Below, piece by piece: positions 1-13,194 of a stretch of 13,194 bases of DNA; positions within the stretch are counted from its first letter, which is position 1; every line of letters starts with the position of its first letter. A program made the position numbers and the translations under genes. Source of the DNA: a virus (taxonomy: Duplodnaviria > Heunggongvirae > Uroviricota > Caudoviricetes); IMG/VR virus record IMGVR_UViG_2690316066_000016, positions 1-13,194 of that record; one strand, 5' to 3'. The notes under the pieces were generated by a model. That model searched no databases and had not been told where the DNA came from. It saw only the letters and a list, made by a program, of their open reading frames with translations.

Positions 1-1
1 C

Positions 2-691
2 GCTGAGCTTACCGCTGAGCTTAACATGCGTAAAAAACAATACAACTACTATCGCGACCAGTTATTTAGTTTTGGTGCCCACGATGTTAAACGTCTGAAA
101 TTAGGAGAGCTATGTGTAATTGGAGACGGTTTGCATGGTACTCCAGAATATGACGCCAACGGTGATTATTTCTTTATCAATGGAAACAATTTAGGCTATC
201 AAAAAATATCATTTAACGATAACACAAAAAAGGTTAATGATTCTATGTTTAAAAAACACGGAATTCATTTTGACCCAATAAATACTGTTTTCCTGTCAAT
301 TAATGGCACAATTGGAAATGTTTCCTTTTACAATAATGAGAAGATCGTACTCGGTAAGTCTGTGGCCTATTTTAAAATTAAATCACCTGAACTCCACACT
401 AGATATCTTTTCTATTTCCTGCAGACCAATTACGCAAAACAGTATTTTGAAAATCAAAAAACAGGTTCAACTATTAAAAACTTAGGTTTAAAATCGTTGA
501 GAGCATTTGAAATACCTATCCCATCATACGATGAACAACTTTATATCGTCGCCACGATGGATAAATTTTACAACCTGACAAACTCCATCACCGAAGGTCT
601 CCCGCGTGAAATCGAGTTGCGCCAGAAACAATACGAATACTACCGTGATTTACTGTTCAGTTTCCCGAAACCTGAAACTGTCAGTAATTAA
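2..691 (+). CDS. hsdS: Type I restriction-modification specificity subunit HsdS, 5'-truncated by the window edge (C-terminal target-recognition domain plus conserved tail)
   Basis: Frame opens at the window edge with [22 protein letters not shown] (central conserved region) and ends ...[20 protein letters not shown], the duplicated conserved motif typical of HsdS. The ATG at 26 is internal, not the true start. hsdR follows on the same strand. Confidence 0.8.
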
Positions 692-813
692 TTGACCATT
701 GCTACCGATCGGGCCACCTTAACACCCGGTCAGTATATAGACTATTTTTTTACGCGCCGGAAGTCACTCTTAACGCCCTTCCGGCTCTTGCCAGGCGGCA
801 CAAAGGATGCGCT

Positions 814-3800
814 ATGACTCATCAAACACACACCATTGCTGAATCCAATAACTTTATCGTCCTTGATAAGTACATCAAAGCTGAGCAAACAAGCGACAGC
901 TACCAGAGCGAATCGGACCTGGAACGTGAACTGATTCAGGACCTGCGGAATCAGGGTTATGAATTTATTTCGGTAAAATCACAGTCAGCGATGCAGGCCA
1001 ACGTTCGGGAACAGCTTCAGAGCCTCAATGGTGTGGTGTTTAATGACAGCGAGTGGCGGCGTTTCACGGAGCAGTATCTGGATAACCCGAGCGATGGCAT
1101 TCTGGATAAGACCCGTAAAATCCATATCGACTATATTTGCGACTTTATTTTTGATGACGAGCGTCTTGAGAACATCTATTTGATAGATAAAAAGAATCTC
1201 ATGCGCAATAAGGTGCAGATTATCCAGCAGTTTGAGCAGGCGGGTTCTCATGCTAACCGTTATGACGTCACGATCCTGGTTAATGGCTTACCACTGGTAC
1301 AAATCGAACTGAAAAAGCGCGGCGTGGCGATTCGTGAGGCTTTCAACCAGATACATCGTTACAGTAAAGAGAGTTTTAACAGCGAAAATTCCCTGTTTAA
1401 GTATCTGCAACTGTTTGTCATTTCTAACGGCACCGATACCCGTTACTTTGCCAACACCACAAAGCGCGATAAAAACAGTTTTGACTTCACCATGAACTGG
1501 GCGAAATCAGACAACACGCTGATTAAAGACCTCAAAGATTTTACCGCTACCTTTTTCCAGAAACATACTCTGCTTAATGTTCTGGTGAACTACAGCGTGT
1601 TCGATATTAGCCAGACGCTACTGGTGATGCGACCGTACCAGATTGCCGCTACCGAACGGATCTTATGGAAAATCAACAGTTCCTATAAAGCGAAAAACTG
1701 GTCTAACCCCGAAAGCGGTGGCTTTATCTGGCACACTACCGGTTCCGGTAAAACACTGACCAGCTTTAAAGCCGCGCGCCTGGCAACAGAACTGGACTTT
1801 ATTGATAAAGTCTTCTTTGTGGTCGACAGGAAAGACCTCGATTACCAGACGATGAAGGAATATCAGCGTTTTTCCCCAGACAGCGTCAACGGCTCGGAAA
1901 ATACCGCAGGCCTTAAACGAAATCTGGATAAGGACGATAACAAAATTATCGTCACCACTATTCAGAAACTTAATAACCTGATGAAAGCAGAAAGCGACCT
2001 GCCTGTATACAATCAGCAAGTGGTGTTTATATTTGATGAATGTCACCGCAGCCAGTTTGGAGAAGCGCAGAAAAATCTGAAGAAGAAATTCAAACGCTAT
2101 TATCAGTTTGGTTTTACCGGCACACCTATTTTCCCGGAAAACGCTTTAGGCTCAGAAACGACCGCCAGCGTATTTGGTCGTGAATTGCATTCATATGTGA
2201 TTACCGATGCGATTCGTGATGAAAAAGTGCTCAAATTCAAGGTGGACTATAACGATGTGCGGCCCCAGTTTAAATCTTTAGAGACAGAAACCGACGAGAA
2301 AAAACTGAGTGCGGCTGAAAATCAGCAGGCGTTTCTTCATCCCATGCGTATACAGGAAATTACGCAATATATTCTGAATAACTTCCGCCAGAAGACCCAC
2401 CGTACTTTCCCAGGTTCCAAAGGCTTTAATGCCATGCTGGCAGTGAGTAGCGTGGATGCCGCGAAAGCCTATTACGCGACGTTTAAACGGTTACAAGAGG
2501 AAGCAGCTAATAAATCGGCTACCTATAAACCGCTGCGTGTTGCGACAATCTTCTCCTTTGCCGCCAATGAAGAACAAAATGCCATTGGTGAAATTTCCGA
2601 TGAAACTTTTGATACCAGCGCAATGGACAGCAGTGCTAAAGAGTTTCTTGACGCTGCAATTCGTGAGTATAACAGCTATTTTAAAACTAACTTCAGCACC
2701 GACAGTAACGGTTTTCAGAACTACTATCGTGATTTAGCCCAACGGGTTAAAAATCAGGATATCGATCTGTTAATTGTCGTTGGGATGTTTTTAACCGGCT
2801 TCGACGCTCCAACATTGAACACGCTATTCGTCGATAAAAACTTGCGTTTTCACGGCCTGATGCAGGCATTCTCCCGCACCAACCGCATTTATAACGCCAC
2901 TAAAACCTTCGGTAACATCGTCACTTTCCGGGATCTGGAACGCTCAACCATTGATGCCATAACGCTGTTTGGTGATAAAAATACCAAAAATGTAGTGTTA
3001 GAAAAGAGTTATGCAGAGTATATGGAAGGCTTTACTGATGCTGCCACTGGTGAAGCTAAACGCGGCTTTATGGCAGTAGTTTCAGAACTGGAACAACGGT
3101 TCCCTGACCCTGCCAGTATTGAAAGTGAAAAAGAGAAGAAAGACTTCGTTAAACTGTTTGGTGAATACCTGCGTGCCGAGAACATCCTGCAAAACTATGA
3201 TGAATTTGCCACGCTGAAAGCCCTGCAACAAATCGATCTTAGCGATCCTGTTGCGGTAGAAAAATTCAAAGAAGAACATTATGTGGATGATGAAAAGTTC
3301 GCTGAATTACAAACGATTCGTCTCCCTGCTGAACGCAAGATTCAGGATTATCGTTCTGCCTATAACGATATTCGTGACTGGCAGCGCCGCGAGAAAGAGG
3401 CTGGCAAAAAAGAAAAGTTAACTACTGACTGGGATGACGTGGTTTTTGAAATCGATTTGCTGAAGTCTCAGGAAATAAACCTGGATTATATCCTTGGACT
3501 GATTTTCGAACACAACAGACAAAACAAAGGTAAGGGCGAAATGACCGAAGAGGTCAAGCGCTTAATTCGTTCGAGCCTTGGGAACCGTGCCAAAGAAGGT
3601 CTGGTGGTCGATTTTATTCAACAAACAAACCTGGATGATTTGCCGGATAAAGCCAGCATCATTGACGCGTTTTTTACCTTTGCTCAACGCGAACAGCAAC
3701 GTGAAGCAGAAGCATTGATCAAAGAAGAAAATCTCAATGAAGAGGCGGCGAAACGCTATATTCGCACGTCTTTAAAACGCGAATACGCCACCGAAAATGG

Positions 3801-3930
3801 CACGGAATTAAACGAGACATTGCCAAAACTCAGTCCGTTAAATCCGCAATATAAGACGAAAAAACAGACGGTTTTCCAGAAGATCGTCGCGTTTATTGAG
3901 AAGTTTAAAGGTGTAGGCGGGCAGATATAA
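814..3930 (+). CDS. hsdR: Type I restriction enzyme R subunit HsdR (1038 aa), EcoR124I-like (type IC) by length and context
   Basis: N-terminal PD-(D/E)xK-like nuclease region ([19 protein letters not shown]), helicase motif I HTTGSGKT, motif [12 protein letters not shown] (DExH). AAGGA sits 6 nt upstream of the ATG. The 1038-aa length matches my memory of EcoR124I HsdR (not verified here). Confidence 0.9.
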
Positions 3931-3944
3931 TGTATTAATCCGAA

Positions 3945-3974
3945 CCTGATCTGGCAGATAGCTGTCAGATCAGG
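3945..3974. repeat. Imperfect 13-bp-stem inverted repeat immediately downstream of hsdR (CCTGATCTGGCAG-ATAG-CTGTCAGATCAGG)
   Basis: Read directly from the sequence; one mismatch in the stem and no T-tract after it, so it is not a canonical intrinsic terminator. Possibly an mRNA 3' stabiliser or protein-binding site. Confidence 0.4.
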
Positions 3975-4114
3975 ACTGAGCTAATACAAATTAATATCGA
4001 ACCGAAAATACCAACGCCTGTACCAACATTTTTCGTTTGCGATGGGTTGGAATTGGTTAGCCCTGAGAGAGTTAAAATAGCGAGAAAGATAGGTAACTAA
4101 CGGATTTCAGACAC

Positions 4115-4137
4115 AAAAAAAGCCGCTCTTGAGCGGC
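4115..4137 (-). terminator. Rho-independent terminator on the minus strand, downstream of the tRNA-Leu 3' fragment
   Basis: Plus strand AAAAAAA-GCCGCTC-TT-GAGCGGC; on the minus strand this is a GC hairpin followed by a T7 run, 17 nt after the tRNA-like CCA end. Confidence 0.6.
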
Positions 4138-4154
4138 TCGATTTGCATACGATG

Positions 4155-4185
4155 TGGTGCCGAAGGCCGGACTCGAACCGGCACG
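4155..4185 (-). other. 31-nt 3'-terminal fragment of a tRNA-Leu gene (T-arm, acceptor 3' strand, CCA); putative att core of an integrated element
   Basis: Minus strand reads CGTGCCGGTTCGAGTCCGGCCTTCGGCACCA, matching from memory the 3' end of E. coli tRNA-Leu (leuX-type). Upstream sequence has no matching 5' acceptor strand (no GCCGAAG...), so this is not an intact tRNA. An integrase gene starts 134 nt away. Confidence 0.6.
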
Positions 4186-4318
4186 GGTTATAGCGACTTA
4201 GCTTGCTTCAACAATCATCGTTAACTTGTTGAACTAGTTAGACTAAAGCTCATGACCCCGGCACATTTCACAGACTGTTTAGCCATGAAAAAGCCCCGAC
4301 AACATAACCGGGGTTTGT

Positions 4319-5527
4319 ATGAGTTTCAAGAGAGATCGTTATCTAGTTTTAGATCCCTGCGGGAATTACCTCGTGCGGATAGCTATCCCCAACTACATGC
4401 GCCACCTGTTCCAAGGGAAGCGCTACTTTATGAAAAGCACAGGGACACGCGATGTACGCCAAGCGCGATTGTTTCGGGATGCTATTGCTCTGGAATGGAC
4501 TCGCTTACGGAATCTGCTAAAGCCGCAAGGCGGCTCGTCTGTAGATCAAATCATTGATGAGCTACGCCGTGTCAGTGTGTACGCCAAGGAAGCCCCCACA
4601 TCATTTGGTGCATCAGTTCAGTCTTGCCCTTCCCTACTTAAAATGCGCGATCTGTATCTTCTCCAATACAGCGAGAAGAGAAAGCTAACGACGCTATCCA
4701 AGACCAACAAAGCCGTAGAGATGCTGTTAACCCACCTGAAAAAGAAAGATGTTCAGTTGCGGGATATAAACCGAACCATAGTTACAGGCTGGTTAGATAA
4801 GCTCAAAACTGAGCGAGCGCCCCAAACTATCCAAAACTATATAAGCGCACTGGCACAGATATGGGACCTGGCACGCAATCGCTATCACGATGCGCCACAA
4901 GACAATCCTTGGCGCGGTCATGCGCTCGAAGCAAAAAGCAGCAAGGTCAGCTATGAAGTCTTCGCACCGGGTGAGCTGGCAAAGGTCTATGCTTTGCTTG
5001 ATGACGAGATGAAAGCGGTAACGGCTATTGGTGCATACAGCGGTATGCGGATCAATGAAATATGTACCCTACGTGAAAGCAGTATTAAAACTATCGAGGG
5101 AGTTTTGTGCTTTGAGATCACCGAGGGGAAGACCAAGAGCGCGGCGCGAATCGTCCCAGTACACAGCAAGCTAATCCCCCTCGTGAAATCATTGCTCAAA
5201 ACCACACATAGCGGTTTTCTGTTCTATCACGCATCAATTACAGACCGGGCCGATGGGAAGCGCTCAACGTGGCATACGCAGCAATTCACGCGAGCAAAGC
5301 GTAAAGCTCTTGGCGAGCTTGCCGCAGAGAGAAAAGTGTTTCACTCACTCCGCCATGCTTTTGTGCAACAGCTCGACCGCGCTCAAGTGCAAGAGGATAG
5401 AATCGCGCTACTGGTAGGCCATGAGCGTGGAAGTACAGAAAGTTTCAAAACCTATTCACGAAATAGCGCCTCAACGATTGAACTTAAAAAATACGTCGAA
5501 TTGTTGTCATATAAAGACATCAGGTAG
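4319..5527 (+). CDS. Tyrosine-type site-specific integrase (phage/island integrase)
   Basis: C-terminal catalytic signature: Arg in GMRINEICTLR, HxxR box HSLRHAF, LVGHE, and a Tyr in KTYSRNS about 35 aa after HxxR. Lies next to the tRNA-Leu att-like fragment. The start is uncertain; downstream Met codons are possible. Confidence 0.85.
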   Translation: MSFKRDRYLVLDPCGNYLVRIAIPNYMRHLFQGKRYFMKSTGTRDVRQARLFRDAIALEWTRLRNLLKPQGGSSVDQIIDELRRVSVYAKEAPTSFGASVQSCPSLLKMRDLYLLQYSEKRKLTTLSKTNKAVEMLLTHLKKKDVQLRDINRTIVTGWLDKLKTERAPQTIQNYISALAQIWDLARNRYHDAPQDNPWRGHALEAKSSKVSYEVFAPGELAKVYALLDDEMKAVTAIGAYSGMRINEICTLRESSIKTIEGVLCFEITEGKTKSAARIVPVHSKLIPLVKSLLKTTHSGFLFYHASITDRADGKRSTWHTQQFTRAKRKALGELAAERKVFHSLRHAFVQQLDRAQVQEDRIALLVGHERGSTESFKTYSRNSASTIELKKYVELLSYKDIR

Positions 5528-5578
5528 ATAAAAAACACTTGCGAAATGGATTAATTTTTCACTTAAATTATTTGAGCA

Positions 5579-5605
5579 GGCTGCGCTATTAATTCAAGCG
5601 CAGCC
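5579..5605. terminator. Perfect 9-bp-stem hairpin (GGCTGCGCT-N9-AGCGCAGCC) between the convergent integrase and TIR genes; candidate bidirectional terminator
   Basis: Inverted repeat read from the sequence, located in the 83-bp gap between two convergent stop codons (5527 and 5611). Flanks are not strongly T-rich, so terminator function is inferred from position only. Confidence 0.35.
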
Positions 5606-5610
5606 AATCG

Positions 5611-6225
5611 TTACCATAGTCTAGGTTTAGCTCGGATAGCAGGAACTGTATCTGCATTTCTTTTAACAGCAGGATTCATAATTGCTCGCTTATTAAATGC
5701 TTCATCAATATATGTTTCGCAATCAGCAATAAAATCGGAATACCTTACCACTGCACAATACACTTCCTCATCGGTGTAATGCGGAACTGTTTTTTGAAGA
5801 CGATGATTACCTTGTACCAGATAAGGAAGATATAGTGTATAACCAGTAGAAATCTGCCTTAAACTCACTCCGCAGTTACATCGAAAGTCAGAACATACAG
5901 CATCGGTAAAAACTTCATTCCAGATTTCATCTCTGACGACACCTATCAATCCCGCTGGATTTTCACCCCATAGAGATGCTTGAATTTCTGAGTTCACAAA
6001 TGGACGTTGGGCGGTCTCTCTCCCGATAAGCACAACAGTAACTGTAGTATCAGCGAGATATTCCTCGCGTATCTTACGCATGATGTATTCTTCACTTACA
6101 TCAGTACTAATGTCACCGTCGCTTACGGATTTATCGATAAAAGATTCCCCACCATACGTCTCTATTATACTATCTTTTAAATCCTGTTCATTAGCATGAT
6201 GATAACTTAGAAATGTTTTATGCAT
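5611..6225 (-). CDS. TIR-like domain protein, ThsB-like (DUF1863-type); likely start at the Met codon 6225-6223, with an alternative in-frame ATG at 6237
   Basis: N-terminus KTFLSYHHANEQDL and core TVTVVLIGRETAQRPFVNSEIQASLWGENPAGLIGVV follow the ThsB/TIR-like pattern as I remember it (F-[ILF]-S-[YF]-H...D, then VLIG..T..R.[WF]V..EI with the conserved Glu). GGAG sits 6 nt upstream of the 6225 ATG. Its start overlaps the upstream gene's stop as TAATG. Confidence 0.7.
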   Translation of the reverse strand: MHKTFLSYHHANEQDLKDSIIETYGGESFIDKSVSDGDISTDVSEEYIMRKIREEYLADTTVTVVLIGRETAQRPFVNSEIQASLWGENPAGLIGVVRDEIWNEVFTDAVCSDFRCNCGVSLRQISTGYTLYLPYLVQGNHRLQKTVPHYTDEEVYCAVVRYSDFIADCETYIDEAFNKRAIMNPAVKRNADTVPAIRAKPRLW

Positions 6226-6962
6226 TAGTTGCTCCATTTATCCATGTCAATACTAAACTGGCTGGCAACACTATCTTGAAAGAATTTATTCAGCTCAGTG
6301 AAATCATTAACAAGTTTATTAAAATGATAATAGTAAGTCTGAATTTTACCGATTGGTGTCAGATGATACCTAAGAACAATTGCTTCACCATCAGGTTTCT
6401 CGTCAATTTTAACTTCATCTTTATCTGAGACGTATTTATGCCAGCGCCTATAATTATTTTGGTGCTCAGTCAGAAATGCATTTAGTTTTTTGAGCATAGT
6501 ATTCGCCAACATATATAACTCAAGATCTTTTTTCCTTTTAATATTCAGAACTCGCATCTCAACACGAATAAACTGATAGACCTCGTAGTAAGAATTAAAT
6601 ACCTCATCAAAAGCATCCTGCTGAACGTTTATTTTAAAAAGCGTCCTTTTCGTGTCGAGAAAATTCTGTATAGACTTTATGAAAAGGGCATCAGAGTTAT
6701 CAAAAAGAATATTTAAACCGCCAAAATTAAGCCGTTCAACTTTAAACGAATATTTTCTATTCATCATGCCATCTAATAGAAAGATAGCCACAATGATTAA
6801 TACAACTACAGAAAGTAGAGAACTAAGTACCCCAATATTTTGAAGTAAACGCTTACCGAAGGTTATATCTTCCGACGTTGGTAACTGAACAGTTCCCAAG
6901 AGCGCAATAACAACTATGCAAACAGACCCCCACACAACCCATCTCTTGTACATAAGCATCAT
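6225..6962 (-). CDS. Membrane protein with two N-terminal TM helices and a roughly 180-aa cytoplasmic domain of unknown family; candidate effector/partner of the TIR protein
   Basis: Hydrophobic stretches WVVWGSVCIVVIALLGTV and NIGVLSSLLSVVVLIIVAIFLL, with positive residues before TM1 and after TM2 (N-in/C-in). No family motif recognised in the C-terminal domain. Start ambiguous among three ATGs (6962, 6959, 6953); AGGA is best spaced for the 6953 ATG. Very AT-rich. Confidence 0.6.
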   Translation of the reverse strand: MMLMYKRWVVWGSVCIVVIALLGTVQLPTSEDITFGKRLLQNIGVLSSLLSVVVLIIVAIFLLDGMMNRKYSFKVERLNFGGLNILFDNSDALFIKSIQNFLDTKRTLFKINVQQDAFDEVFNSYYEVYQFIRVEMRVLNIKRKKDLELYMLANTMLKKLNAFLTEHQNNYRRWHKYVSDKDEVKIDEKPDGEAIVLRYHLTPIGKIQTYYYHFNKLVNDFTELNKFFQDSVASQFSIDMDKWSN

Positions 6963-6981
6963 CCTAAAACGCAGTTTAAAA

Positions 6982-7010
6982 ACTATACAACGATGTTTTT
7001 AAGAGTGGAA
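6982..7010 (-). promoter_or_regulatory. Candidate sigma70 promoter for the 2-TM/TIR operon (-35 TTCCAC, 17-nt spacer, -10 TATAGT on the minus strand)
   Basis: Hexamers read by eye on the minus strand upstream of the operon start; the -35 is weak (3 of 6 matches). Not experimentally supported. Confidence 0.3.
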
Positions 7011-7035
7011 GTCCTAGTTATCAGACACATTCTGC

Positions 7036-7066
7036 TTAGCCTACGCATCTCTATTGTGTAGGCTAA
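7036..7066. repeat. Perfect 9-bp inverted repeat (TTAGCCTAC-N13-GTAGGCTAA) between the phage genes and the TIR/TM operon
   Basis: Read from the sequence. Lies 20 nt downstream of the endonuclease VII-like gene stop and just upstream of the candidate promoter: either a terminator hairpin for the phage gene or an operator. Confidence 0.4.
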
Positions 7067-7086
7067 TGCAATGAACTTAAGCCCAG

Positions 7087-7533
7087 CTAAGTAAGTTGCT
7101 CAGTTTTATGGGGATAGATAACTCCTATCCCCTTGTACTGGCGTCGGTAACTTACCAACATTACGCTCATACTGTCGTGGGCCAGTCCACATAAACTTCC
7201 TGCATAATAGCCTCCCTCGGCAGCGTTAGCAGATCGATGCACCACAGCACGCACGCGCCCGGTTCGGTGGCAGTGATCCAGCACGGCAGACCCAAGGCGC
7301 AGCGGCTTACCTGTCACTGCACAGCGTCGGTATTGATAATTCCACAAGAAGACACGGACAGTAGCCACATCAGCGCGACGCAGCTCCAGCCGTCCTGAAC
7401 CATTCAACAGGAAGTGATACACATCATCGAACGCAGCAGAATTTTTAATGCGTTCAGGCAACGGCGTATTGCCGAGATATTCCAGATATCCCCGCATCGC
7501 TTTTCTTAGTAGTTGGTCTGTCCGTGTAACCAT
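7087..7533 (-). CDS. Phage endonuclease VII-like (HNH-superfamily) protein, apparently degenerate in the zinc-ligand positions
   Basis: Motif CAVTGKPL...AVLDHCHRTGRVRAVVHRSANAAEG resembles the endonuclease VII signature (CxxC ... DHxHxTGxxRGxLCxxCN..G), but with CxxT and HxxA where the Cys pairs are expected. GGAG lies 10 nt upstream of the ATG. Confidence 0.5.
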   Translation of the reverse strand: MVTRTDQLLRKAMRGYLEYLGNTPLPERIKNSAAFDDVYHFLLNGSGRLELRRADVATVRVFLWNYQYRRCAVTGKPLRLGSAVLDHCHRTGRVRAVVHRSANAAEGGYYAGSLCGLAHDSMSVMLVSYRRQYKGIGVIYPHKTEQLT

Positions 7534-7805
7534 GATTCAAAGTCTCCACTGTCAGATGCAGCCCGTTTGCAGGCTTCGTATTCTTCGCGCTGGCGTTGGC
7601 ATACCAGAGCATAAAGCTCGACGGCCATCGCATTAACACGTTCGTCACTGATACCATTGCGGCGCATCAGCCCCAGCAGCTTACGAAATTTAGCTTCAAG
7701 CTCAGGCTCTCCGGTATCCATTACCCACTGTTTCAGGTCAGCGAGTGCGCCAGTCATTGGCGGCGGCTCGATGTACCGCCACCTTAATTTAATCGTGGTT
7801 ATCAT
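7506..7805 (-). CDS. Hypothetical phage protein (about 99 aa from the RBS-supported start; the ORF extends to 7853)
   Basis: Open frame with GAGAGGA 8 nt upstream of the ATG at 7805-7803, which overlaps the 3' end of the upstream gene (stop at 7789). No recognisable family. Confidence 0.45.
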   Translation of the reverse strand: MITTIKLRWRYIEPPPMTGALADLKQWVMDTGEPELEAKFRKLLGLMRRNGISDERVNAMAVELYALVCQRQREEYEACKRAASDSGDFESWLHGQTNY

Positions 7806-8214
7806 CTTCTTTATCCTCTCTGTAAGCCGGGTGCATTGCTCGGTATTGCTCAATGGTCAAACCCTCGCTGGCCGCTGCAAACCGTTCCTTTTGCTTACCC
7901 GCCAATCGCAAGGCGCTGTCTCTCCAGCAGAGCAGAAAGAAGATGGTCAGCACCTGTTTACTCAAGCCATCCAGAAGATCGCCAAGTCCTTGCTCAAGCA
8001 GACAGGCACGCCATGCAGCGGCGTGCTCAGTCATCGCACCTACTATCGGGACAGGTGCGCCGAGCATTGTCGCAAGCTGACTCATAACACTATTAGCATC
8101 GCCCGGATGCAGCCGGGGAATAGTCATGCGGCCAGCCTGCGCCAACAGCTCGTCGTACCGCTGGCGGCGTGGGTCATCACCTGCCAGCGACCTAATCGGC
8201 TTTTCATCAGCCAT
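7789..8214 (-). CDS. Hypothetical phage protein (141 aa)
   Basis: Open frame with a strong RBS (GGAGG 8 nt upstream of the ATG at 8214); co-directional and tightly packed with neighbouring phage genes; no family recognised. Confidence 0.5.
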   Translation of the reverse strand: MADEKPIRSLAGDDPRRQRYDELLAQAGRMTIPRLHPGDANSVMSQLATMLGAPVPIVGAMTEHAAAWRACLLEQGLGDLLDGLSKQVLTIFFLLCWRDSALRLAGKQKERFAAASEGLTIEQYRAMHPAYREDKEDDNHD

Positions 8215-8232
8215 TAATGGAACCTCCGAGGA

Positions 8233-8742
8233 TTAGGCAGCCTGCAATAAATCGGCTGGCGTTGAGGGATGGTATCTGGCTTTAGCTTTCAGGTACGCAA
8301 CACGCGCCGCAGCTTCGGTAGTGAATAAGCCAAGGTGATGACGTACACCATCAACACGAATATAAGCCTCCCATTTACTACTACCCTTATTCCAGCTATA
8401 CCCTCTTGCCCTGCGTCGATTCTGGTCGTTTTCCCGCTGCGTAACCAATCGCAGATTGCATAAGCGGTTGTCGTCACGGATACCGTTGATGTGATCGATC
8501 TGCATACCGTGGGGAATAGCACCATGCGCAAGAATCCACGCCACGCGATGGGCTTTTAGCTGGTACTGCTTGCCATCAAGTCGCAGGGCAACTTGACGAT
8601 AGCCATCAGCTCGACGGGTGGAGTCGGCATAGGTGCCAACCTTAACCCGGCGTCGGTTAGCTTTATGTTGCAGGCGGCCTGTCACCGGGTCATATAGGAA
8701 AAGGGAGAGCAGTAGCTCAGGGGCGTAAGCATCATTAACCAT
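8233..8742 (-). CDS. HNH homing endonuclease with a C-terminal AP2-like DNA-binding domain (phage-type)
   Basis: HRVAWILAHGAIPHGMQIDHINGIRDDNRLCNLRLVTQRENDQN is a classic phage HNH (HNH_3-type) motif; C-terminal SKWEAYIRVDGVRHHLGLFTTEAAARVAYLKA resembles an AP2 domain. Confidence 0.8.
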   Translation of the reverse strand: MVNDAYAPELLLSLFLYDPVTGRLQHKANRRRVKVGTYADSTRRADGYRQVALRLDGKQYQLKAHRVAWILAHGAIPHGMQIDHINGIRDDNRLCNLRLVTQRENDQNRRRARGYSWNKGSSKWEAYIRVDGVRHHLGLFTTEAAARVAYLKAKARYHPSTPADLLQAA

Positions 8743-8758
8743 GACTCAGCCCCTCCAG

Positions 8759-9754
8759 TTACACAGCTTGTCGGAAATTGATAACGCAGTCAGGACGACG
8801 CAGCCCAACGTTGAACAGGCGATATGAGTCCATCACCATTGTCATTTCGCGCTCATCATCCCACTGGCGATTAATGACGCTCTGCGCTTCGACCGTCAGC
8901 AGCACAGAGGAAGGTTTAAATAGCGTCGCCCTCGTCAGCGCTTCCTCTGCGGTAACATCATAATCAGCGCCCAGTTCATGCCCGGTGATGGCTTCCTGCG
9001 GGTAACTGTTGAGTTCAATGACTCGCACCCCAGCGACATAGCCAACGCGACGCCATGCGTAATCGTTGCCACTATCCCGGCTGTAACGGACGTTCATCAG
9101 CTTCTTATGCTCCATCAGGATGCTGAACCAAGCCGGGTCGATAAGCAGTACCAGCTCCGCCACCGGAATATCTTTCTCAGTCAGGAATCGATTAACAGCA
9201 GCTTTAATAGCGTGAACCAGCTCATTTGCTGCGTCCTCTTCACTACCCGTGGTCAGGTTGAGCGGGACAACGTTATCCGTAAGCGGGTTAAACGTTGGTT
9301 GCAGTGTCGGCGGTGGTACAAAGTCAGTCGCTTTGATTAGCTGGGTGGTGTGCGCTTCGTCGTAGAATTTAGCGTGAGCAGTACCCATATTGCGGCTCAG
9401 TTCTGCGCGAAAGGTGGGCGCTGTCCAGTCGTCCTGATAGTCAATCGGGACGCGGATATAGCTCAGCGTATCCACAGAGATAACCAACTTGTCCGACTTA
9501 ACGGCGGTAGGCTCCAGCGATTGCCCTGCGGTTCTGCCCTTCACCTCAAGATCACCACCTAGGCGATCAATGCGGTATTGGTTGCTGTTTTTCAGCGGCT
9601 TGTATGTGCTTAGCCCCTCTGCGAGAAAGACGCTCTTTGCCTCAAGGCGGGTCTGAACGTCCCGATCATACGCTTCAATGTGAATGTCGTTGTCAGCATC
9701 CACACCGCCCCAGTGCGGGCGGAATTGGTCAGGGGTATAAACATTGTCAGTCAT
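8759..9754 (-). CDS. Phage major capsid protein, T7 gp10-like (HK97 fold), putative
   Basis: Blocks KSDKLVISVDTLSYIRVPIDY, IKAAVNRFLTEKDIPVAELVLLIDPAWFSILME and RVGYVAGVRVIEL align by eye with T7 gp10 regions as I remember them (KVITIDGLL..., LTKNYVPAADRVFYCDPDSYSAILAA, NVMGFEVVEVPHL). GGAG lies 8 nt upstream of the ATG. Homology is from memory, not a search. Confidence 0.5.
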   Translation of the reverse strand: MTDNVYTPDQFRPHWGGVDADNDIHIEAYDRDVQTRLEAKSVFLAEGLSTYKPLKNSNQYRIDRLGGDLEVKGRTAGQSLEPTAVKSDKLVISVDTLSYIRVPIDYQDDWTAPTFRAELSRNMGTAHAKFYDEAHTTQLIKATDFVPPPTLQPTFNPLTDNVVPLNLTTGSEEDAANELVHAIKAAVNRFLTEKDIPVAELVLLIDPAWFSILMEHKKLMNVRYSRDSGNDYAWRRVGYVAGVRVIELNSYPQEAITGHELGADYDVTAEEALTRATLFKPSSVLLTVEAQSVINRQWDDEREMTMVMDSYRLFNVGLRRPDCVINFRQAV

Positions 9755-9821
9755 AGAAATAGCTCCAGCGCCAGCAGTAGCCAGCGTGATTTATGAAAAG
9801 AGAAAGAGAGAATGGGAGGAA

Positions 9822-10169
9822 TCAGGCAGCAGCTTTTTCAGCAGCCACCTCAAGAATCAGGCCGATAAGCGCGAAAGCGGGCCATTGGGGATTAAGCTCG
9901 TGCAGGTGCGCAACGCCTCCACCAAAAGCATCGCGCATGTCAGCACCAGAGATGCCAGAGCGTTTGGCCGCCCGCCGCAGCAATCGCAGCTCAGAGCTGG
10001 GAACATACGCCGAGGGCATACGCACGCCAAAGCGTGAGGCGAGCCGCCGCCAGTGAGTTTCATCAGCAAAGTCTTGTTTAAGCTGGCTGGCGTTGGCTTT
10101 CCAGTGTTCAATCTTTGCTCTACGGGCAGCCCTAGCCGCTGCCACGTTTTCAGGTGTCAGTAAGGTCAT
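9822..10169 (-). CDS. Hypothetical phage protein (115 aa)
   Basis: Open frame co-oriented with the phage module and preceded by a 160-bp intergenic gap; weak RBS; no family recognised. Confidence 0.4.
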   Translation of the reverse strand: MTLLTPENVAAARAARRAKIEHWKANASQLKQDFADETHWRRLASRFGVRMPSAYVPSSELRLLRRAAKRSGISGADMRDAFGGGVAHLHELNPQWPAFALIGLILEVAAEKAAA

Positions 10170-10329
10170 TGTCAGATCTCAATGCAAAATGGGTTTATGT
10201 GTGGTGTTTGAGAGGTAATTTCGCGTTTTACAGGCGCAGGTATACGAATGCACATCTGGCGATGTACAACGCGATTCAGGCTCTAAAACATAAGGTTAAG
10301 ACGTGGGGAAGACAGGACAGGGCAATTGC

Positions 10330-11409
10330 TTAGCGGCCAGCGCGCTTGCCAGCGGAGCGCTGCGCAACCAGATCGCGGTATTGTTCGTCGTACTGGCGAT
10401 GACCGGGGCCATACCCCGATTGCAGCGCCCACTGCGAAAGCTGGTCATACGCTGCAATAAATTCAGCATGAGACATCCCGACAGGTTGCGCGGTAGGCTG
10501 GCCATGCTGGGCATAACCAGTTTGTGAACCGCCAGCCATACGCTCTTGCAGATACTGAACCGCCCGCTGCATCTGAGCAGGGTCGCCAGACATAACCATC
10601 CGCTCAAGGGTAGATTGCGTCCCGGCATCGAGCGTGCCAGCATATTGCAACATCGCGTCAACTGTACCCTGCCCTAACTGACTTTCTATGGACTGTTGAA
10701 ACTGCCCCATTAACCCTTGCAGCTCGGCGGTATACTCGACAGCCGTCCAGCCATCTTTCATGGTGCGGATCTCTTTTTTACCCGCGTTGACCATTGGCTC
10801 GATGGTGAACGTCATCCCAGGTTTCAGTACGACGTTGGTTTCACGGGAGTCATAGTGCAGCACCTGCGGTTCTTCATGGAAGCCGCGACCAATACCGTGT
10901 CCACAATATTCACGAACGACGGAGAAGCCTTCTGCTTCGACAAACTTCTGAATCGCCGCACCGATTTCGCGCAGGTTAATGCCTGGTTTGACCATGCGCA
11001 GCGCCAGGTACAGGCTTTCTTGCGTGATGCGGCACAGACGTTCGCCCATGATGGTCGGCTTACCGACGATAAACATTTTCGAGGTATCGCCGTGGAAACC
11101 ATCTTTGATTACGGTGACATCAATGTTAACGATATCGCCATCTTTCAGCAGCTTCGCATCGTCCGGGATACCGTGGCACACCACTTCATTAATAGAGATG
11201 CAAACGGATTTCGGATAGCCGTGATAGCCGAGGCAGGCAGAAACCGCGTGTTGTTCATTAACAATGTAATCATTACAGATGCGATCCAGCTCGCCGGTGC
11301 TGACGCCCGGTTTAACATACGGTTCGATCATCTCCAGCACTTCGGCAGCCAGTCGGCCAGCGACGCGCATTTTTTCGATATCTTCTGGGGTCTTGATTGA
11401 GATAGCCAT
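10330..11409 (-). CDS. map: Chimeric ORF: methionine aminopeptidase Map residues 1-222 fused in frame to 137 aa of unrelated (phage-like) sequence; native Map C-terminus (42 aa) missing
   Basis: Translation matches E. coli Map from MAISIKTPEDIEKMRVAG... through ...KKEIRTMKDGWT, then diverges to AVEYTAELQGLMGQFQQ... Nucleotide homology to map stops at about 10743. Position divergent from rpsB matches the known map-rpsB arrangement. Confidence 0.85.
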   Translation of the reverse strand: MAISIKTPEDIEKMRVAGRLAAEVLEMIEPYVKPGVSTGELDRICNDYIVNEQHAVSACLGYHGYPKSVCISINEVVCHGIPDDAKLLKDGDIVNIDVTVIKDGFHGDTSKMFIVGKPTIMGERLCRITQESLYLALRMVKPGINLREIGAAIQKFVEAEGFSVVREYCGHGIGRGFHEEPQVLHYDSRETNVVLKPGMTFTIEPMVNAGKKEIRTMKDGWTAVEYTAELQGLMGQFQQSIESQLGQGTVDAMLQYAGTLDAGTQSTLERMVMSGDPAQMQRAVQYLQERMAGGSQTGYAQHGQPTAQPVGMSHAEFIAAYDQLSQWALQSGYGPGHRQYDEQYRDLVAQRSAGKRAGR

Positions 11410-11554
11410 TAATTCTGTCCATCAGCGTCGGTGATACCGACAATATATATGTAAGTGCCGTCAATGGTATCACACCCGGGCAAATTGAGAATCATTCTGA
11501 ATTTCGCCAAACGTGCCACTGAACGTTTTCTATAATAGAAAATTCAACGTCTGA

Positions 11555-12502
<948 letters not shown>

Positions 12503-12676
12503 TAAGGCTTGATAACTCCCCCAAAATAGTTCGAGTTGCAGAAAGGCGGCAAGCTCGAGAATTCCCGGGAGCTTACATCAGTAAGTGACCGGGATGAGCG
12601 AGCGAAGATAACGCATCTGCGGCGCGAAATATGAAGGGGGAGAGCCCTTATAGACCAGGTAGTACACGTTTGGTTA

Positions 12677-12702
12677 GGGGGCCTGCATATGGCCCCCTTT
12701 TT
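12677..12702 (+). terminator. rpsB-tsf intergenic hairpin with T-tract (GGGGGCC-TGCATAT-GGCCCCC-TTTTT); attenuator or partial terminator
   Basis: Perfect 7-bp GC stem followed by five T residues, between rpsB and tsf as expected for the rpsB-tsf operon. Confidence 0.6.
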
Positions 12703-12759
12703 CACTTTTATATCTGTGCGGTTTAATGCCGGGCAGATCACATCTCCGAGGATTTTAGA

Positions 12760-13137
12760 ATGGCTGAAATTACCGCATCCCTGGTAAAAGAGCTGCGTGA
12801 GCGTACTGGCGCAGGCATGATGGATTGCAAAAAAGCACTGACTGAAGCTAACGGCGACATCGAGCTGGCAATCGAAAACATGCGTAAGTCCGGTGCTATT
12901 AAAGCAGCGAAAAAAGCAGGCAACGTTGCTGCTGACGGCGTGATCAAAACCAAAATCGACAGCAACTACGGCATCATTCTGGAAGTTAACTGCCAGACTG
13001 ACTTCGTTGCAAAAGACGCTGGTTTCCAGGCGTTCGCAGACAAAGTTCTGGACGCAGCTGTTGCTGGCAAAATCACTGACGTTGAAGTTCTGAAAGCACA
13101 GTTCGAAGAAGAACGTGTTGCGCTAAACACAGCCTGA
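12760..13137 (+). pseudogene. tsf: Elongation factor Ts, truncated: only the N-terminal ~122 codons are tsf-like, then three unrelated codons and a stop
   Basis: Translation [43 protein letters not shown]...[11 protein letters not shown] matches E. coli EF-Ts (283 aa), then reads NTA-stop. Nucleotide homology ends at about 13124; the remaining roughly 70 nt are of unknown origin. Confidence 0.85.
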
Positions 13138-13194
13138 ATAAACGGACTGTAGCTGTCGATATCAGCCACCATCACGATGATGTCGCGCGGAGTA

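Follow-up and report, generated by a model that had tools for sequence, protein, structure and literature searches.

The DNA studied here, hereafter the window, is the whole 13,194-nucleotide (nt) stretch of the virus record IMGVR_UViG_2690316066_000016 (positions 1 to 13,194), and our subject is a pair of minus-strand genes at 5611-6962, thsG and thsB, which, judged by sequence, is an allele of type VI Thoeris, an anti-phage system that has already been named and validated. As mechanically called open reading frames (ORFs) the two genes overlap by 13 nt. Reading of the sequence places the best-supported start of each inside its ORF, at the ATG at 6953 for thsG (MYKRW..., with AGGA 8 nt upstream) and at the ATG at 6225 for thsB (MHKTF..., with GGAG 7 nt upstream), and the RefSeq starts for these genes in two E. 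coli genomes agree, giving products of 242 and 204 amino acids. With the internal starts the thsG stop and the thsB start share 1 nt (TAATG) and the ribosome-binding site of thsB is located within the 3' end of thsG.

6225-6962, minus strand: upstream ORF (thsG) as mechanically called, 245 amino acids
5611-6237, minus strand: downstream ORF (thsB) as mechanically called, 208 amino acids
6225..6953, minus strand: thsG, putative type VI Thoeris effector, 242 amino acids, with two predicted N-terminal transmembrane helices and a predicted cytoplasmic helical ThsG domain
5611..6225, minus strand: thsB, putative TIR-domain signal synthase and phage sensor, 204 amino acids, assigned from PF08937, the PADLOC ThsB models and identity with the E. 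coli S1 protein

The GC contents of thsG and thsB are 0.344 and 0.389, respectively, as against 0.488 for the integrase on the left and 0.536 for the phage-type genes on the right. A preliminary description of the window had noted a co-oriented minus-strand pair with overlapping stop and start, lying between an integrase and phage genes and much more AT-rich than its flanks; all of this is borne out, the neighbors on the right being endonuclease VII-like, HNH and major head genes.

Identity with the E. coli S1 system

A 1.7-kb region including the pair is 95.6-96.5% identical in DNA to loci in 2 of 5,426 complete E. coli genomes, S1 (NZ_CP010226, 95.6%) and NZ_LT883142, in both of which the pair is likewise flanked by an integrase and by the same phage-type genes. 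The genes, their order, the 1-nt overlap and the island backbone around them are common to S1 and the window, and the proteins differ at only 6 positions in ThsB (RG64_RS19475, IMG 2719191281; 198 of 204 residues identical, 97%) and 4 in ThsG (RG64_RS19480, IMG 2719191282; 238 of 242, 98%), establishing the identity of the pair with the S1 system.

Yirmiya et al. cloned that system under its native promoter, demonstrated its anti-phage defence and called it type VI Thoeris (preprint of December 2025, bioRxiv 10.64898/2025.12.03.692087). In Table S1 the TIR domain of 2719191281 from E. coli S1 is printed as a sequence under the label 'DUF6650 - Type VI'. ThsB of the window is identical to the printed sequence at 178 of 181 positions, and at the other three RG64_RS19475 has the printed residues. 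In Table S2 of the same preprint the S1 entry pairs TIR 2719191281 with effector 2719191282 ('DUF6650 and TM', type VI), gives defence as 'Yes' in E. coli MG1655 and records that SECphi18 activates ThsB. Because of the 198/204 and 238/242 identities and the match to Table S1 we assign the window pair as an allele of this validated system; phage protection by the window pair would be expected by analogy, since the S1 system, 97-98% identical in protein, is reported to protect MG1655. The preliminary description had proposed an AT-rich cargo in the form of a Thoeris-like defence pair that signals through a TIR protein to a membrane effector, which is correct, and had gone on to suggest a variant not yet described, which the preprint has overtaken. 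As a discovery, then, the pair matters little, a near-identical system having already been cloned, validated and named.

The TIR protein, the membrane effector and their pairing

ThsB matches Pfam PF08937 (ThsB_TIR) with E 1.3e-14 and 54.8 bits (cut-off 21.2), so that the earlier reading of the downstream product as a TIR-like ThsB, for which this Pfam comparison had been proposed, holds. Six PADLOC ThsB models match at E<1e-6 (best E 1.2e-10), and ThsB also has a match to phrog_13658. The match to the B. cereus ThsB structures 6LHY and 9B7D is weak and collinear, and it aligns the glutamate of VNSEIQ with that of WVRYEI, which we take to be the catalytic E85 of the B. cereus protein. Among nine aligned ThsB proteins of type VI-like operons the VNSEIQ glutamate is invariant. 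Residues ~105-185 of ThsB (window 5611-5920, minus strand) display a Cys-x5-Cys-x-Cys ... Pro-His ... Tyr-Cys pattern that is common to the partners of transmembrane (TM) ThsG proteins in E. coli, Alicyclobacillus and Bacillus and is missing from the Acinetobacter TIRs and from those of the Bacillus-scaffold system of the preprint; the segment may be a metal-binding or sensor module.

In ThsG, Kyte-Doolittle analysis locates hydrophobic segments at residues ~4-27 and 35-67 of 242, with flanks rich in Lys and Arg, and an AlphaFold2 model of the monomer (predicted local distance difference test score 74.9) has helices at 2-22 and 35-67 followed by a cytoplasmic domain predicted to be helical with one β-hairpin. 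The two approaches agree with one another and with the two N-terminal TM helices of the preliminary description, and the topology predicted from them is a two-helix membrane anchor with both ends in the cytoplasm (N-in/C-in). Residues K105, R106, R133, R172, R173, W174 and K242 are invariant, and the basic ones among them are compatible with, although no proof of, a basic pocket.

Assignment of the effector to a family is less direct. A sequence search of ThsG against the PDB returns chance-level matches only (E>=0.5), and Pfam gives neither a Macro nor any other match to it at E<=10, DUF2270 being likewise without a match in the window effector; SLATT is absent from the Pfam matches of 21 effector family members at E<=10. 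No PADLOC model matches ThsG, and the PADLOC scan that had been suggested for the window thus supports the TIR half, through the ThsB models, and not the effector. With PADLOC-DB v2 and Pfam, both of the 2023 era, only the TIR half is seen and the system would score as an orphan ThsB.

The preprint labels the ThsG domain Pfam DUF6650 or 'DUF6650-like' (bioRxiv 10.64898/2025.12.03.692087). Using hmmscan we find no match to PF20355 (DUF6650) at E<=10 in ThsG of the window, 27 relatives, three TM-less ThsG proteins or the SMEK protein of DefensePredictor system DS-27, and none at E<=0.01 in 20 remote relatives; for one relative, P0029, there is a precomputed PF20355 tag, which hmmscan does not reproduce. 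The label is unusable as a HMMER criterion because the validated ThsG of the Bacillus-scaffold system fails it too, and it probably stems from profile-profile annotation of cluster representatives, a type of annotation that its authors themselves call noisy (same preprint). Since PF20355 goes undetected, membership in ThsG was set by identity to S1 together with profile searches. The DS-27 SMEK protein, for which the DefensePredictor paper gives an HHpred value of 0.88 to DUF6650, was considered as a relative and dropped, no relation to the ThsG family being found by HMMER.

A profile of the window family (45 members) searched against 1.84 billion representative proteins gives 272 proteins at E<=1e-3, the weaker matches covering only the C-terminal domain and falling in proteins that lack TM helices or have other N-terminal regions. 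We recovered the Bacillus-scaffold system by means of its published TIR domain (100% identical match), directly downstream of which lies a gene for 170 amino acids. This Bacillus ThsG matches the same intermediate proteins as the window family (phmmer; E 2.8e-19 for P0244). When hhalign compares the profile of the window family with that of a small alignment in which the Bacillus ThsG proteins are included, the probability is 98.2% and E is 6e-14 across 114 columns, pairing residues 101-229 of window ThsG with 37-150 of the Bacillus protein; since 6 of the 9 sequences in that alignment had come out of the profile search with the window family, this test is not wholly independent, and against a single Bacillus sequence the match is weak (E 0.073). 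Both groups share the motifs T-[KR], Ser, Arg and LN, and the intermediates have QxxFRRW, a segment of the window family that is missing from Bacillus ThsG. Taken together, these alignments identify the window effector as a transmembrane variant of ThsG. The domain is also found at the C-termini of soluble proteins of ~300 amino acids with unrelated N-terminal regions of ~150-190 (P0218, P0229, P0232, P0240, P0252), so that it is joined to at least three N-terminal types: none, TM helices, and a soluble module of unassigned kind.

A TIR gene adjoins the effector homologue in all seven genomic contexts examined, namely two E. coli satellite-like islands, a P2-like prophage, Alicyclobacillus, Bacillus paralicheniformis, an Acinetobacter multi-TIR island and a metagenomic Bacillus contig. 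The prophage pair, a paralogue that emerged from the homology search, is the ACN001 system, a second validated type VI system, the locus being 99.9% identical in ACN001 itself. Because the effector has a conserved family (E down to 1e-154) and the pairing recurs in every context, the sequences indicate that both genes are genuine and not chance ORFs. A tblastn search of ThsG in 50,697 phage records gave no match, so carriage by sequenced free phages is not shown. Some ThsG loci have additional TIR genes: in Acinetobacter sp. (locus L012, 1-4630) four TIR-domain genes surround one ThsG, and on Bacillus scaffolds (L006/L008, 4151-5594) the type VI pair is followed by a second, convergent TIR_2 gene and a gene for ~213 amino acids.

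The island and its cargo slot

The pair occupies a variable slot in a satellite-like island of ~12 kb that adjoins hsdR, with the integrase on one side of the slot and an endonuclease VII-like gene on the other. The borders of the slot and the elements within it are as follows.

4319..5527, plus strand: tyrosine integrase, left border of the slot (Pfam PF00589, PHROG 1; same position in loci L001, L002 and L005)
5579..5605, minus strand: perfect 9-bp inverted repeat (GGCTGCGCT / AGCGCAGCC), -17.9 kcal/mol, z -3.6
6954..7086, minus strand: intergenic region 5' of thsG, presumed site of the native promoter
7036-7066: hairpin with a 9-bp stem just past the endonuclease VII-like stop codon, -17.7 kcal/mol, z -6.3
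7087..10742, minus strand: conserved island backbone, right border of the slot (Pfam and PHROG matches)
8759-9754, minus strand: major head protein, part of the island backbone (Pfam and PHROG matches)

The backbone at 7087..10742 comprises the endonuclease VII-like gene, two small ORFs, an HNH endonuclease, the major head protein and further genes, and is collinear with islands in E. coli LT883142, S1 and E2348/69. The island, found again in many E. coli genomes, has the order integrase, cargo, endonuclease VII-like gene, two small ORFs, HNH, major head protein, DEAD/DEAH helicase and recombinase. In E2348/69 the same island also lies next to hsdR, and there an AbiTii-domain gene (L005, 11560-12462) fills the slot that corresponds to window 5528-7086; for other island copies a YafO toxin-antitoxin gene is among the features under the match. 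Divergence between islands starts near the 3' end of the integrase gene. Because of this, and because the same island elsewhere carries an AbiTii gene in the slot, we regard the AT-rich pair as exchangeable defence cargo; the slot flanked by the integrase and endonuclease VII-like genes acts as a hotspot for defence cargo, and the window documents type VI Thoeris as one of its swappable loads.

The inverted repeat at 5579..5605 lies 5 nt past the thsB stop, between the convergent thsB and integrase genes, and is kept in E. coli S1; it is a possible terminator, though one without a T-run. The hairpin at 7036-7066 also has no T-run, and the two flank the cargo on either side, where they could serve as terminators or mark the limits of cargo exchange. 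Promoter and terminator scans of the intergenic regions gave nothing over shuffled expectation, with no sigma-70 consensus called in 6954..7086 and the inverted repeat uncalled by the terminator scan. A native promoter is placed in 6954..7086 because the S1 system is stated in the preprint to have been cloned under its own.

The island sites differ: that of the window is next to hsdR, as in E2348/69, whereas the islands of S1 and LT883142 are near fim/nan. Directly upstream of the island integrase of the window (26-3930, plus strand) are the 3' part of hsdS, for type I restriction-modification specificity, and the full hsdR, so that the Thoeris cargo adjoins the E. coli immigration-control region; the same holds in E2348/69, with McrBC and hsdM close by. 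In contrast to S1, the island of the window is cut off at its other end and joined to map. A 359-amino acid ORF (10330-11409, minus strand) consists of the first ~221 residues of methionine aminopeptidase (map) followed in frame by the C-terminal portion of a protein of the island, with the junction at ~10743-10755, where island homology stops at 10755 and map homology starts at 10743. None of the 5,426 complete E. coli genomes spans this junction. Since the ORF fuses map and island parts and the junction is unmatched, the island has been truncated and joined to the map-rpsB-tsf region, either by a real rearrangement that destroyed a copy of an essential gene or through an assembly chimera.

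Signaling mechanism and comparison with known systems

We consider it very probable that the two genes of window 5611-6953 (minus strand), with thsG upstream of thsB, form a type VI Thoeris anti-phage system that works in four steps. Phage infection would switch on ThsB, a TIR protein with an intact catalytic glutamate; ThsB would turn NAD+ into a second messenger derived from ADP-ribose (ADPR); the cytoplasmic helical domain of ThsG would bind this messenger; and the two N-terminal TM helices would convert binding to membrane damage, leading to a growth stop with phage replication unfinished. The window pair has the TIR catalytic residue, a ThsG domain with invariant basic and aromatic residues, and the two-helix anchor. 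In homologous type VI systems ThsB alone makes 2' cyclic ADP-ribose (2'cADPR), and only after infection, exogenous 2'cADPR halts the growth of cells that carry the system, and the sponges Tad1 and MoTad2 as well as the enzyme XopQ abolish defence. AlphaFold3 predicts a homo-hexameric ThsG ring with basic pockets between protomers (bioRxiv 10.64898/2025.12.03.692087), and TM-bearing ThsG variants have been proposed to breach the membrane. By analogy with these systems we infer hexamer formation and membrane disruption, as well as the identity of the signal, for the subfamily formed by S1 and ACN001. Two questions are raised by that subfamily, which messenger it uses and how a ThsG with two TM helices turns ligand binding into growth arrest.

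The first of these questions leads to the alternative that survives best, that the architecture is type VI-like and the messenger another one, with ThsB of S1 and ACN001 making an ADPR derivative other than 2'cADPR and the TM ThsG tuned to that molecule. We regard this as possible, though on balance improbable. 2'cADPR was detected for 3 of 5 type VI systems tested, and a different signal is one explanation offered by the authors for the two TIRs without detectable 2'cADPR, which they leave unnamed (bioRxiv 10.64898/2025.12.03.692087); no naming of the two is found in the preprint text, its supplements or those later papers that were accessible. The 2'cADPR experiments described in the text of the preprint, and likewise in later papers, including toxicity and the sponge and cleavage tests, concern only the Gammaproteobacteria-scaffold and Bacillus-scaffold systems. 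ThsB of the window is only 44% identical (over 101 amino acids) to the Gammaproteobacteria-scaffold TIR, its Cys-rich C-terminal segment is one that the Bacillus-scaffold TIRs lack, and the QxxFRRW segment, as noted above, does not extend to Bacillus ThsG. Against a different messenger, the preprint does not identify the two failing systems, and weak production below the detection limit would explain the result equally well, the S1 and ACN001 TIRs having been on native promoters and not on pBAD. Moreover, Table S1 places the S1, ACN001 and Gammaproteobacteria-scaffold TIRs in one and the same TIR cluster.

That S1 and ACN001 are the two systems without detectable 2'cADPR is likely, but unproven. 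The fuller proposition, that the enterobacterial subfamily with QNNYRRWH in a TM ThsG and Cys-x5-Cys-x-Cys...His...Cys in ThsB is this 2'cADPR-negative pair and employs a novel TIR-derived signal, we hold to be doubtful. If true, it would mean that the subfamily signals via a new TIR-derived molecule, with the Cys-rich segment as a possible metal-binding sensor of phage.

Very unlikely, in our estimate, is a scheme with no diffusible signal, in which the TIR protein is itself an NAD+-depleting effector and the membrane protein its sensor or anchor. Many bacterial TIRs are indeed NADase effectors, the preprint concedes the possibility for unverified TIR operons, and the S1 system has no signal explicitly ascribed to it. 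In three homologous type VI systems, however, the TIR alone makes 2'cADPR upon infection, and in homologous systems 2'cADPR alone makes ThsG toxic; moreover, the ThsG domain occurs in variants both with and without TM helices, and its invariant basic and aromatic residues are those expected of a ligand receptor.

It is harder still to credit that the pair is a module for satellite interference or maintenance (toxin-antitoxin, superinfection exclusion, helper-phage manipulation) in place of general anti-phage immunity. Its position in the accessory slot of a satellite-like island, where related islands hold AbiTii or list a YafO toxin-antitoxin gene, fits such a role, but the S1 pair protects against unrelated lytic coliphages when placed outside its island in the MG1655 chromosome, and pairs are also found outside satellites, in the P2-like prophage and in Firmicutes chromosomal loci. 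Least of all can the pair be type II Thoeris, with a 2-TM Macro effector sensing histidine-ADPR (His-ADPR), the nearest model in the preliminary description: the layout, two N-terminal TM helices and a cytoplasmic domain beside a ThsB-type TIR, is superficially alike, but the effector has no Macro, other Pfam or PADLOC match, its predicted domain is helical with one β-hairpin and not an α/β/α Macro fold, it is homologous to ThsG instead, and lysates from none of the new TIRs contained His-ADPR (bioRxiv 10.64898/2025.12.03.692087), so that fold and homology refute this reading and leave it with virtually no chance.

Two-gene type VI Thoeris, as we assign the window pair, can be set beside the other Thoeris types. 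Type II (ThsB with the 2-TM-Macro protein now renamed ThsC, His-ADPR) likewise combines a TIR protein with an effector bearing two N-terminal TM helices, and both types are abortive-infection or growth-arrest defences that act via the membrane; the sensor domain is Macro in type II and the helical ThsG domain in the window. Types V (DUF2270/ThsF) and VII (SLATT/ThsH) also consist of a TIR protein and a small membrane effector predicted to form an oligomer with basic ligand pockets, but their effector families are unrelated to that of the window and their signals are 3'cADPR and canonical cyclic ADP-ribose. Type VII was considered as a candidate and rejected by its defining domain, SLATT being absent from the Pfam matches (E<=10) of the 21 effector family members scanned.

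Within type VI, the Bacillus-scaffold system has a ThsG domain homologous to that of the window and a ThsB-type TIR partner with the same invariant glutamate. Its ThsG, unlike that of the window, has no TM helices, its TIR is only 17-19% identical to the window protein, falls in a different cluster and has an additional segment at its N terminus, and its gene order is reversed, with thsB first. Much closer is the ACN001 system, where, as in the window, a 2-TM ThsG is followed by an overlapping ThsB, with 50% identity to the window in ThsG and 70% in the TIR domain of ThsB. Unlike the island-borne pair of the window, the ACN001 pair sits in a P2-like prophage between DinI-like and gpU genes, and its type is the commoner of the two in complete E. 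coli genomes, 42 of 5426 as compared with 2 of 5426 for the S1 type.

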